Source: an uncultured Erysipelotrichaceae bacterium | GTDB lineage: Bacteria > Bacillota_I > Bacilli_A > RFN20 > CAG-826 | NCBI GenBank assembly: GCA_900316365.1 | Contig: ONCO01000005.1 | Location: 95,621 to 159,620, forward strand | Length of the DNA: 64,000 nucleotides | Direction of reading: 5' to 3' | In this document: positions 35,655 through 38,224 of the stretch, piece after piece | Layout of the letters: every line of letters begins with the position of its first letter | How positions within the stretch are numbered: position 1 is the first letter of the stretch | Program-made: the position numbers and the translations under genes | Notes under the pieces: generated by a model | Told to the model about the DNA's origin: nothing | What the model saw: only the letters and a program-made list of their open reading frames with translations | Databases searched by the model: none

Positions 35655-35848
35655 CCGAAAGTCTCTTGCTTCTTTCTTGCGGGGCTTAGAAAGAGTATTA
35701 TTACTCCGCTTGGGTGTTTAGCTCAGCGGGAGAGCGCTTCCTTCACACGGAAGAGGTCGTTGGTTCGAAACCAATAACACCCACCATTTTATTTGCCGCA
35801 ATAGCTCAATTGGCGCACCAAAGACAAAATCTTGCCTCGGTATTCCGG
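35655..35848 (+). repeat. Direct repeat copy 1 (~195 bp): leader + tRNA-Val + degenerate mini-tRNA-like helix + terminator
   Basis: ~90% identical to 37955..38160. Copy 1 lacks an 11-nt segment (tcctgtttgcg) present in copy 2. Confidence 0.85.
35712..35786 (+). tRNA. tRNA-Val (anticodon CAC)
   Basis: GGGTGTTTAGCTCAGCGGGAGAGC-GCTTCCTTCACACGGAAG-AGGTCGTTGGTTCGAAACCAATAACACCCACCA. All four stems pair. Confidence 0.88.
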
Positions 35849-35930
35849 GGCTTTTTCTTTGATTAAGAAAAGATTGTAAAAAGAGTGAGCGGTTTTAATC
35901 TATCTTCGCGTCATATTGGTAAGAGACTTC

Positions 35931-36428
35931 ATGAATATCTCAAAACACACCATCCTTGCCTTCATTCAAGGCAAACAATCGGCGATCGAAAAAGTCTATG
36001 TTGAGTACAAGAACTTGATGTATTTCATTATCGCCAACTACGTTGATAACCAAGATGACTGCGACGACGTTTTAAGCGAAGCCTTCATGAAGGCGATCGA
36101 AAGAAAAGAGAGCATCAAAGACCCGAGTAAACTTAAAGCTTATCTATCTGCGATCGCCAGAAACGAAGCCATAAGCTTCCAGAGAAAGAAAAAGGATGTG
36201 GCATCTTTCGAAACCATCGAGACCATGTATGGCGAAGAAGACCGCACGAACACCATGCTCAACATGATTGAGCCTTTGCTTAGTAACAAAGAGACCATCG
36301 TTGTCTATTATCGAACCGGGTTCTCCTATTCCTGGCAGGAATTAGAAGAAGAAACAGGCATTCCGGAATCAACGGCCAGACGAGTCTACTCCAAAGCGAT
36401 GGAGAAACTCAGAAAGGAACTAGTATGA
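35931..36428 (+). CDS. ECF-type RNA polymerase sigma-70 family factor
   Basis: Region 2-like DDCDDVLSEAFMKAIER and region 4 HTH ETGIPESTARRVYSKAMEKLR. ~165 aa. Start set at the first ATG (35931); the track ORF begins at a TTG. Confidence 0.75.
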   Translation: MNISKHTILAFIQGKQSAIEKVYVEYKNLMYFIIANYVDNQDDCDDVLSEAFMKAIERKESIKDPSKLKAYLSAIARNEAISFQRKKKDVASFETIETMYGEEDRTNTMLNMIEPLLSNKETIVVYYRTGFSYSWQELEEETGIPESTARRVYSKAMEKLRKELV

Positions 36429-37900
36429 AATTCGAGAAAAAAGTCGAGAAAAGAGTAAACGATCATCTTAATCAATTTGTTAAAAATCCTTATGAGAAGA
36501 GAAGAAGGACCTTCCCTCTTTGGAGCAAGATCGCCATTCCTTCTGGCGCCCTTGCTTTAACTGCGGGCATCGTCTTAAGCGTCTTTGCTTTCAACCCTCA
36601 GGGGGAGAAAGACCTCAATGTCTTGATTAAGCCAAATGTCGTAAAAGTGGTTGACGCTAAAGAAGCGAGGCACGCCATGACGCTTAAGTCGTATGAATCC
36701 TATATGGCCTTTGCCCGTAAATTCGTTCCGTCAATCATGGCCGAGAATACCAAAGAAGAGGAAACCAACATGAGCGTTTCTATCCCGGATGCATATATCG
36801 CCATCGCGATTGCCGGTATTATTTCCGATGCAAAAGCTTTGACGGAAGTCCTCTCTTACCTTGAATTATCGTCTGAGGCCGAGCTCAAAGAGGCCGTCAG
36901 CGACATCATTAAGAGCCTCTGCGTTTTAACAAAGGACGATGACAATAAGCTAGATGGCGGCTTCAACACAAACTCCATTTGGTTTGATCCAAAGCAGGTT
37001 GCCTTATTAAAGGATAAGGATAATCAGCTTTATCAAGATCTCGCAGATGTTTTCGGCGCCACGATCTTCATGGAGCCGCTTACTACCGAGACGGCAATGA
37101 AGTACCTTACAGAAAACGCCGTCGAAGGGATCCCAGTTCCGGACGTTACATTAGATGATTACAATCCATCTCCGGCCTCGATTATGAGCACTTATACCTG
37201 CGTTTCTTGTTTCTCAGGTACACTCGCCAAAATGATGCAATCTGAGTATGAAAGCGGAGAACACAAGATGATTTATCATGCTTTGCAGGAAGATAAACTC
37301 GTCGACTATATCCACAAATACTATGACAGCGGTTATGTCTATGAAGGCGAAGGCTTCCATGGCGCGGAAATGGGTATCGGCGAAAGCCAGGCCCGCTTCT
37401 TCTTGCCGGATAGCTCCGATGCGACTGCGACCAGCATCTTAGAGGACGTTCTTGCAGACAAATATGATTACGTCGAATGTGAAACCGTGAATGGCGAGAA
37501 ACGCCCTCAAGAATACAAATTGGATATTAAAGCCCCTTATTTCGATATGAATAACAAACTTGATTTCAGCAAGGGCTTTAAAAAAGCGTTCCCGAATATG
37601 ACTGATAATGGGTTCGCGTCACGATTGGTTAAGCCAAAAAACGCTGATAAACTTTTTGCCACAGGCCTTGGCCAGTTCTCAAAGGTGAGGTTTGATTATC
37701 AAGGCTTCTTCTCTAGCTCCGTGACCGTTATCTCTGCCTCAACGTCCGCTCCGATGCCACCAGATAATCCGGTTTACCATTTGTCCTTAGATCACCCATA
37801 TGTCTTTGAGTTCAAGGATTACATTAATATGCAGGGCGGCGGCTTCAGGAACGTACCGATGGTTGTTGGCCGAATCATCGACCCTGTTTACGAAGGATAA
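36425..37900 (+). CDS. Membrane-anchored serpin (serine protease inhibitor fold): short cytoplasmic N-terminus, one TM, extracytoplasmic serpin domain. Translationally coupled to the ECF sigma factor gene
   Basis: TM [24 protein letters not shown]. Helix A and s6B/hB region [14 protein letters not shown]...[32 protein letters not shown], cf. antitrypsin [40 protein letters not shown], cf. NYIFFKGK. C-terminal [26 protein letters not shown]...[10 protein letters not shown], cf. IPMSIPPEVKFNKPFVFLM...LFMGKVVNP. ATGA start/stop overlap with the sigma gene. Confidence 0.65.
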   Translation: [491 protein letters not shown]

Positions 37901-38001
37901 CGTTCCTTTTAGGAGAAAGACCTACCCCTAGGTCTTTTTCTTCGTCTAGATAGGTTCTTGCTTTTTCCTTGCTCGGCTTAGAAAGATTATCATTACTCCG
38001 C

Positions 38002-38076
38002 TTGGGCGTTTAGCTCAGCGGGAGAGCGCTTCCTTCACACGGAAGAGGTCGTTGGTTCGAAACCAATAACACCCAC
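38002..38076 (+). tRNA. tRNA-Val (anticodon CAC), second copy with a C4:A69 mismatch in the acceptor stem (possibly impaired, or a pseudogene)
   Basis: Identical to 35712..35786 except T4>C (GGGCGTT vs GGGTGTT), which creates a C:A mispair. Confidence 0.7.
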
Positions 38077-38086
38077 CATTTTATTT

Positions 38087-38123
38087 GCCGCAATAGCTCA
38101 ATTGGCTCCTGTTTGCGGCACCA
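38087..38123 (+). ncRNA. Mini-tRNA-like element: 7-bp acceptor-type stem GCCGCAA/TTGCGGC enclosing a D-arm-like TAGCTCAATTGGCT, followed by ACCA. No anticodon arm or T arm
   Basis: GCCGCAATAGCTCAATTGGCTCCTGTTTGCGGCACCA. The degenerate counterpart at 35794..35820 has the 3' strand disrupted by a deletion. Confidence 0.4.
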
Positions 38124-38224
38124 AAGATGAATTATCGCCTCGGAAGAACTGAGGCTTTTTGTTTTTTTCGAGGACTTTCCTTTTAACGAGTGACATTTAT
38201 ATTCACGCAGAGTATTCTCTTTCT

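Follow-up and report, generated by a model that had tools for sequence, protein, structure and literature searches.

A putative membrane-bound anti-sigma factor with a serpin-fold ectodomain in uncultured rumen Bacilli

This study concerns a pair of overlapping genes in a 64,000-nucleotide (nt) stretch of DNA, hereafter the window, from an uncultured Erysipelotrichaceae bacterium (assembly GCA_900316365.1, contig ONCO01000005.1, positions 95,621-159,620 of the forward strand). The first gene encodes a sigma factor of the extracytoplasmic function (ECF) class and the second, an open reading frame (ORF) of 491 amino acids (aa; 36425-37900, plus strand), overlaps it by ATGA and is translationally coupled to it. 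The pair is flanked by direct repeats that contain tRNA-Val(CAC) genes and, in line with the initial annotation of this DNA, the two genes are the sole gene-size ORFs between them. We propose that the 491-aa protein is the cognate membrane-bound anti-sigma factor of the sigma factor, with a very divergent serpin as its predicted sensor domain. The features of the locus are listed in Table 1.

Table 1. Features of the sigma-serpin locus and its immediate surroundings, in window coordinates
Feature	Position	Strand	Content or basis
tRNA-Ile(GAU)	35539..35615	+	ARAGORN; Rfam 71.3 bits; left anchor of the variable region
Repeat copy R1	35657..35851	+	leader 35657-35711, tRNA-Val(CAC) 35712-35786, tRNA-Thr(UGU) remnant 35795-35820, terminator hairpin 35834-35851
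Putative autoregulated ECF-type promoter	35886..35914	+	TGAGCG-N18-GTC[TA]TA, conserved upstream of sigma
ECF (group IV) sigma-70 family sigma factor, 165 aa	35931..36428	+	TIGR02937, Sigma70_r2, r4
Proposed sigma-binding (anti-sigma) module and anchor, codons 1-56	36425..36592	+	33-aa cytoplasmic N-terminus; transmembrane helix, residues ~34-56
Predicted extracytoplasmic serpin-fold domain, residues ~86-491	36680..37897	+	AlphaFold2, Foldseek, family profile
Hinge and reactive-centre-loop region, residues 427-455	37703..37789	+	aligned to the loop of PDB serpins 3le2 and 9j88
Likely operon terminator	37918..37945	+	hairpin and T-run, AGACCTA-CCCC-TAGGTCT, TTTTTCTT; read from the sequence 3' of the 491-aa gene
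Repeat copy R2	37949..38155	+	leader 37949-38003, tRNA-Val(CAC) 38004-38078, tRNA-Thr(UGU) remnant 38087-38123, terminator hairpin 38137-38155
LuxE-LuxC module	38225..40608	+	PF04443 E 4.1e-47; PF05893 E 7.8e-56

The sigma factor gene and the fold of its partner

The sigma factor matches TIGR02937 (E 1.4e-18, 67.1 bits vs. a cutoff of 42.9) and Sigma70_r2 (E 2.5e-11, 43.6 bits vs. a cutoff of 24), and its region 4 scores slightly under the cutoff (E 4.8e-5, 23.2 bits vs. 24.1). It consists of the sigma-2 and sigma-4 regions only, and its length falls within the range of the ECF class (about 160-200 aa). The promoter motif given in Table 1 recurs ahead of the sigma gene, at an equal distance, in 19 loci that represent three lineages, taking the form TGAGCG-N18-GTCATA in the window, and this conservation fits the autoregulation common to ECF sigma factors. 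A search of the window for further regulon members (TGAGC-N18-20-GTCWT) returned the sigma factor's own promoter and three other matches, all three inside coding ORFs. In one other lineage (L004 3477-5379, L005 1267-5378, L015, L016 and L017 of the related loci analyzed) two or three tandem paralogous genes for a lipoprotein of ~300 aa and no known function lie upstream of the sigma gene. The nearest of them is preceded by a near-identical copy of the sigma promoter (TGAGCG-N18-GTCTTA), and this lipoprotein gene is a candidate regulon member.

The initial annotation had read the extracytoplasmic part of the 491-aa protein as a serpin and had named a missing serpin-family match as the result that would speak against this. 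Direct searches do give that result: the protein has no Pfam or NCBIfam match at E<=1, PF00079 included, and phmmer finds no match in the PDB. The serpin call is nevertheless upheld, because relatives of the protein, profiles of its family and its predicted structure all point to the same superfamily. We found 25 homologues, 34-98% identical to the window protein, and the three that have NCBI names are all labelled hypothetical protein. PF00079 is matched by 10 of the 26 sequences in the family alignment; P0006 scores 29.6 bits (gathering threshold 27) and the match of P0007 spans profile positions 13-356 of 370. A profile built from the family matches serpins in the PDB at E 0.017-0.07, and the alignment places the segment FDYxGFxSxSxT...DHPYVFE...VGxIxDP on strand s5A, the hinge, the reactive-centre loop (RCL) and strands s1C, s4B and s5B, in that order. 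Searched against 1.84e9 representative proteins, the same profile returns 575 at E<=1e-3, the distant matches among which (E 1e-10 to 1e-17) are canonical serpins with PF00079 E-values of 1e-50 to 3e-66. Membership of the serpin superfamily is thus reached in sequence through intermediates and not by direct search.

The AlphaFold2 (AF2) model of the protein has a predicted template modelling score of 0.73, and the predicted local distance difference test (pLDDT) is mostly 80-95 in the ectodomain. The serpin fold comprises three beta-sheets, about nine helices and a C-terminal s4B/s5B hairpin, and the model agrees with it: Foldseek returned 352 matches in the PDB at E<=0.001, the first 50 of which are serpins without exception (best E 1.7e-18, TM-score about 0.65-0.75). 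Identity to the PDB serpins matched is 12-15%. Profiles and model together identify the ectodomain of the 491-aa protein as a very divergent serpin.

The N-terminal module and its sigma factor

The part of the protein on which an anti-sigma role would depend is its N-terminus, in which KRRR is followed by a 23-aa hydrophobic helix, in agreement with a single-pass topology with the N-terminus inside. This is also the best conserved part of the protein, with a mean column entropy of 0.77 vs. 1.36 for the ectodomain. A motif KKR...L..V.NPY is conserved and residues L15, N21, P22, Y23, P31 and W33 are invariant.

In a tblastn search of all fetched loci, a homologue that has this N-terminus is accompanied by an orthologous sigma factor (63-99% identical) that ends at or beside the partner's start codon, and in the loci examined the N-terminus was found only alongside such a sigma factor. 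Over all partner loci the sigma orthologues are 59-99% identical. The adjacency holds in at least four genomic contexts, namely next to the tRNA genes and LuxE-LuxC, between a lipoprotein array and a CPBP gene, with ProRS and tRNA-Ser, and with a helicase-like and a TIR gene. Three lipoprotein-type homologues that lack the N-terminus have no adjoining sigma gene. In locus L023 an ectodomain of the same clade is joined to a different N-terminus, and it stands behind a different sigma factor (27% identical).

The representative search also returned proteins that share only the N-terminus with the window protein. Seven of the ten that were scanned have a serpin ectodomain, some of them canonical, and the ectodomains of this set are either serpin or unassignable. 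The most informative is P0137, whose serpin domain is canonical (PF00079 E 1.3e-47, hinge KEGIEAAAYT) and whose gene overlaps by 4 nt that of a sigma factor 59% identical to the one in the window. The N-termini of P0137 and the window protein are 50% identical over 58 residues, whereas their ectodomains are barely alignable. A profile of the N-terminal 56-65 residues, searched against 5.8e9 proteins, returned only nine short fragments and is uninformative on non-serpin ectodomains. We conclude from these comparisons that the sigma factor and the N-terminal module travel together and that the attached serpin domain ranges from canonical to highly divergent.

The initial annotation had placed the protein where an anti-sigma factor would normally sit. 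That position is borne out by the ATGA overlap with the sigma gene, by an adjacency conserved across genomes and by the co-occurrence of N-terminus and sigma factor, and the anti-sigma role itself is favoured by the comparative evidence. We put the probability that the 491-aa protein is the cognate membrane-bound anti-sigma factor of this ECF sigma factor, forming a signalling pair with it, at roughly 0.7. Several findings weigh against this assignment. The 33-aa cytoplasmic part matches no known anti-sigma domain family in Pfam or NCBIfam, and classical anti-sigma domains are about 80 aa long. The window contains no linked protease or site-1 protease gene. In seven loci (L004-L007, L015, L017 and L019) the anti-sigma gene is followed by a gene for a CPBP/Rce1-like intramembrane protease, which we considered as a dedicated site-1 protease; the case is weak, the linkage being confined to one lineage. 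In two unrelated contexts a TIR-domain gene (TIR_2; CAP12-PCTIR_TIR) is found close to the pair, immediately downstream in L035 (4150-4905) and about 5 kb downstream in L005 (12762-13644), possibly by coincidence.

Alternatively, the serpin-like protein might be an output of the system, that is, a tethered inhibitor made under sigma control against rumen or competitor proteases, with the N-terminus serving as a plain signal-anchor and control of the sigma factor lying elsewhere. Prokaryotic serpins held by a membrane anchor or made as lipoproteins form a recognised class; the membrane-anchored ones are noted as such by Spence et al. 2021 (PMC8233489), where neither sigma factors nor operons are mentioned. 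The lipoprotein versions of the clade that have no adjacent sigma gene suggest that the ectodomain can work alone, and the canonical relatives carry hinges of the inhibitory type. A plain anchor, however, would not be expected to keep L15, N21, P22 and Y23 unchanged in a protein whose ectodomain has diverged too far for BLAST to recognise, nor to co-occur with the sigma factor throughout the loci examined and to change together with it in L023, and none of the operons contains another candidate for the anti-sigma factor. We therefore consider a pure effector role unlikely.

No paper linking serpins to an anti-sigma factor, to ECF sigma factors or to extracytoplasmic function turned up in full-text literature searches, and the pairing appears to be undescribed in the searchable literature, as the initial annotation had supposed. 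The nearest parallels are found among other anti-sigma factors. In Bacillus subtilis, Clostridioides difficile and Enterococcus faecalis the anti-sigma factor of sigma-V, RsiV, is itself the lysozyme receptor. The proposed pair would resemble this system in joining an ECF sigma factor to a co-transcribed single-pass anti-sigma factor, in an ectodomain that recognises a hostile extracellular enzyme and, presumably, in release by regulated proteolysis. It differs in that RsiV has an ectodomain of the DUF4179/DUF3298 type that binds lysozyme non-covalently, whereas that of the window protein is serpin-like, and the N-terminal domains have no detectable similarity (the window protein has no Pfam match). 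The RsgI anti-sigma factors of sigma-I in Clostridium (Acetivibrio) thermocellum carry varied extracellular carbohydrate-binding modules (CBMs). They share with the present family the combination of a conserved sigma factor and anti-sigma N-terminal module with exchangeable extracellular sensors; there the sensors are CBM- or GH-like, bind polysaccharides and serve a SigI-type sigma factor, whereas here a serpin-fold sensor varies as alleles and the sigma factor is of the ECF class.

Other parallels concern the serpin. Miropin, a lipoprotein of Tannerella forsythia (PDB 5ncs), and tengpin (2pee, 2pef) are among the Foldseek matches and likewise place a serpin fold outside the cell on a lipid or transmembrane (TM) anchor, but the window clade is far more divergent, and we found no report of miropin, tengpin or membrane-anchored serpins being encoded with, or acting on, a sigma factor. 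In Bifidobacterium breve a protease-inducible serpin is under the control of the SerRK two-component system. This too is a gut bacterium that ties a surface or secreted serpin to dedicated, protease-responsive signal transduction; there a histidine kinase senses and the serpin is the output, whereas here the serpin domain is fused to the presumed regulator.

Hinge, reactive-centre loop and ectodomain alleles

The RCL region of the window protein agrees in length with those of 3le2 and 9j88. Within the hinge G427, F428, S430, S432 and T434 are invariant in the family. These correspond to positions P15, P14, P12, P10 and P8, which make up the face that becomes buried upon loop insertion. According to the column entropies residues 436-451 are the most variable stretch, and indels occur there; the model has pLDDT <50 for residues 440-453.

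The signalling route that we envisage starts from the ECF sigma factor, which would be transcribed from its own autoregulated promoter and held by the cytoplasmic N-terminus of the anti-sigma factor (residues 1-33, KKR..L..V.NPY). A single TM helix would connect this module to the extracytoplasmic serpin-fold sensor, with its conserved hinge and hypervariable RCL. The signal would most likely be an extracellular protease or some other ligand that engages the loop, and cleavage or binding would alter the serpin domain, upon which regulated proteolysis would remove the anti-sigma factor and free the sigma factor. We infer the binding of sigma, the sensing of a protease and the regulated proteolysis. 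In its most specific form, which we put forward only tentatively, the ectodomain would be a suicide-substrate sensor: a protease would cut the RCL, the loop would enter sheet A in the stressed-to-relaxed transition, and the anti-sigma factor would thereby be marked for regulated proteolysis, releasing the sigma factor.

Properties of the hinge and the model count against protease sensing of this kind. The hinge consensus of inhibitory serpins has Gly at P15, Thr or Ser at P14 and small residues at P12-P9. The window clade is unlike them in having Phe at P14 and Phe or Tyr at P13. AF2 places residues 427-438 as a strand beside s5A (pLDDT 83-89), in other words as an inserted loop, and the best Foldseek matches of the model are cleaved CBG and latent tengpin. 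The canonical relative P0137, modelled as a control at similar alignment depth, was predicted in the native state, its loop disordered, with native antithrombin and native tengpin as best matches, a comparison to be read in the light of the inability of AF2 to separate a metastable from a ground state. Because the window model is loop-inserted while P0137 is modelled as native, the window clade may be a non-metastable, non-inhibitory scaffold.

Such a scaffold could still belong to an anti-sigma factor, with a stable, permanently loop-inserted serpin domain that binds a non-protease ligand or acts as a phage or bacteriocin receptor, and with no cleavage or switch of the loop. The modelled insertion, the resemblance to cleaved and latent serpins and the aromatic P14 and P13, which are atypical for inhibitors, suit this reading. 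So does the divergence of the whole ectodomain between allele classes (about 55% aa identity), as might be expected of a surface target under frequency-dependent selection. On the other hand, variability and indels are concentrated in the distal loop (436-451), as is usual for an RCL that determines specificity. The buried-face pattern of the hinge suits a switch equally well, and sigma-linked relatives retain canonical inhibitory hinges. We regard the scaffold without a switch as doubtful.

The ectodomain alleles were compared between strains, with the synonymous divergence (dS) and the ratio of nonsynonymous to synonymous divergence (omega) estimated by the Nei-Gojobori method. Between the window and L008 identity is 96-100% through most of the GH16 gene, the tRNA genes, the sigma gene and the partner gene up to about codon 65; two intervals of 100 nt are lower, one inside GH16 (82%) and one at the window's own tRNA-Thr deletion. 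From about 36620, just past the TM helix, it falls to 55-79% and stays there to the end of the gene. Compared with L001, the flanks are mostly 93-100% identical (L13/S9 94-100%, LuxE/LuxC 96-99%) and the ectodomain is 55-73% identical. Against L008, L024 and L034 the sigma gene of the window has a dS of 0.03-0.10, whereas that of the ectodomain is 1.4-2.1, with omega about 0.2. Three ectodomain allele classes can be recognised, comprised of the window and P0001, of L008, and of L001, L024 and L034; comparisons inside the third class give an omega of 0.6-0.9, based on few substitutions. The ectodomains are thus old alleles that recombination has moved, breaking near the boundary of TM helix and ectodomain, and at least three deeply diverged allele classes have been shuffled onto nearly identical backgrounds.

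Two other places in the region are hot spots of strain divergence, namely the gene for a GH16 lipoprotein (34501-35334, minus strand) and a region of small ORFs at 34100-34450. The interval 34100-35334 is 64-89% identical between strains or unalignable, with flanks mostly 93-100% identical, and the stretch from rpsI to LuxE acts like a recombination hot spot for surface proteins.

A variable locus anchored by a tRNA operon

The repeat finder detected a single direct-repeat family in this region, pairing 35657-35814 with 37949-38106 over 158 nt without gaps (94% identity, spacing 2292), which establishes the direct repeats with tRNA-Val around the cassette that had been described in the initial annotation. 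In a gapped alignment the similarity of R1 and R2 continues past one 11-nt indel to their terminator-like hairpins. Both tRNA-Val genes were found by ARAGORN and by Rfam (66.4 bits in R1, 62.1 bits in R2). An acceptor-stem mismatch (C4:A69) reported for the second gene is visible in the sequence, as T35715 in R1 vs. C38007 in R2, and it is real and recurs in the independent same-strain contigs L032 and L033. To the left, tRNA-Ile(GAU) is kept in all same-species loci, and the terminator scan gives it a terminator-like hairpin of its own at 35626-35647. The hairpin behind the 491-aa gene is absent from that scan and is kept in L008 and L034.

What had been taken for a truncated tRNA-like minihelix in each repeat is instead the remnant of a tRNA-Thr(UGU) gene. 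In every relative examined this gene is intact and lies 8 nt after tRNA-Val in both repeat copies. In the window its first 20 nt are left in both copies, after which 50 nt are gone from copy 1 and 39 nt from copy 2; the two deletions share one 5' breakpoint, and the remnant in copy 2 additionally carries a G>T change. At R1 the gene is intact in L001, L008, L024, L029, L030, L032, L033 and L034; at R2 the whole gene is present in L025, a contig 99.96% identical to the window, and L033 has an intact 5' part. Contigs L032, L033 and L025 match the window at 99.96-100% over 2.3-7.2 kb and contain in addition exactly the 50 and 39 nt. Because the two deletions have the same breakpoint and the strain is otherwise identical to strains with intact genes, they are probably an assembly artefact in a repeat that exceeds the k-mers of the assemblers, which is likelier than very recent private deletions. 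Decay of redundant tRNA-Thr genes, spread by gene conversion, was also considered and dropped in view of the 99.96-100% identical contigs that are intact at both places. The true repeat unit would then consist of leader, tRNA-Val, tRNA-Thr and terminator and, where intact, measure about 290 bp.

Three layouts of the locus were observed. In layout A (window, L001-3, L024, L029) tRNA-Ile is followed by R1, sigma, serpin, R2, LuxE, LuxC and a helix-turn-helix (HTH) gene. Layout B, seen in L030, is an empty site in which GH16, tRNA-Ile and one Val-Thr unit are followed by LuxE and LuxC; the unit has an R1-type leader and an R2-type tail, and LuxE is 100% identical to that of the window. Layout C (L008 and L034, from two sources) runs from tRNA-Ile and one repeat through sigma and serpin to the HTH gene and lacks R2, LuxE and LuxC. 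A scan of Joint Genome Institute (JGI) metagenomes for the Val-Thr junction returned one locus, L034. The tails of R1 are orthologous between genomes, as are those of R2; between R1 and R2, divergence is about 15% in the leaders and about 30% in the tails. Since R1 and R2 are each orthologous between genomes, the duplication is older than the strains compared.

LuxE and LuxC lie outside the sigma/anti-sigma pair and make up a second, independently variable module of the locus, with a sigma-70-like promoter (38190-38218) ahead of them; each of the two modules has its own copy of the Val/Thr unit upstream. LuxE (acyl-protein synthetase) and LuxC (acyl-CoA reductase), variable in presence, thus occur in the genome of a non-luminous rumen member of the Bacilli. 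The region is best described, from these layouts, as a two-module variable locus anchored by a tRNA operon. Homologous recombination through the ~200-290-bp repeats and the conserved flanks, and not an integrase, is the best account of its gains and losses. Recombination of R1 with R2 can turn layout A into layout B, and the reverse event could turn B into A. Layout C cannot arise at the repeats. It counts against this account that layout B is known from a single contig, L030, and that its exact repeat of ~165 nt exceeds the k of 119 used by the assembler.

It had been suggested that the cassette is the cargo of an element which integrated site-specifically into tRNA-Val and later lost its integrase. 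The direct repeats with tRNA-Val around the cassette and the empty site with one tRNA unit, which the initial annotation had asked for and which L030 provides in one contig, are compatible with such an event. Integrase-generated repeats, however, span only the 3' part of a tRNA, whereas the repeat here is a whole transcription unit that begins ~55 nt ahead of tRNA-Val, takes in tRNA-Thr and ends at the terminator. The ORF listing of the window contains no recombinase within the cassette or adjoining it, and no excisionase or integrase pseudogene was seen there. R1 and R2 differ by 15-30% in their leaders and tails, and each is orthologous between genomes. Layout C could not be produced by excision at the repeats, and the pair occurs in other rumen Bacilli in at least three other contexts, most of them without a tRNA nearby. 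An integrated element is thus very improbable. The polymorphism expected of the cassette is real in so far as it is present in several contigs and absent from one, L030, but layout C indicates a modular variable region and not one inserted cassette.

At the right border a gene for an XRE-family HTH protein (40716-41582) is conserved; the long hydrophobic C-terminal half of the protein gives it the architecture of a membrane-bound transcription factor. Further to the left a gene with an AbiEi_4-type antitoxin/transcriptional-regulator domain (32551-33156, minus strand) lies between a YebC-like gene and rplM/rpsI.

In species-representative genomes the family is confined to metagenome-assembled genomes of uncultured Bacilli, Bacillales or Erysipelotrichaceae, and those with a named source come from ruminant fore-stomachs. 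With it the serpin superfamily would gain a clade that standard annotation has overlooked. The three ancient alleles on near-identical backgrounds suggest balancing or frequency-dependent selection at the surface of this uncultured rumen lineage.

Pairs of ECF sigma and anti-sigma factors are a major bacterial route for sensing events beyond the membrane, and most groups have no known signal. A sensor domain of the kind proposed here has not been described before for such a pair. Its fold has as its one well-understood property an irreversible conformational switch triggered by proteases, which yields a concrete hypothesis. If the suicide-substrate mechanism were true, the diverged ectodomain alleles would be alternative baits tuned to different proteases, anti-sigma factors would gain a new principle of signal transduction, and the serpin mechanism would be seen in a new biological role.

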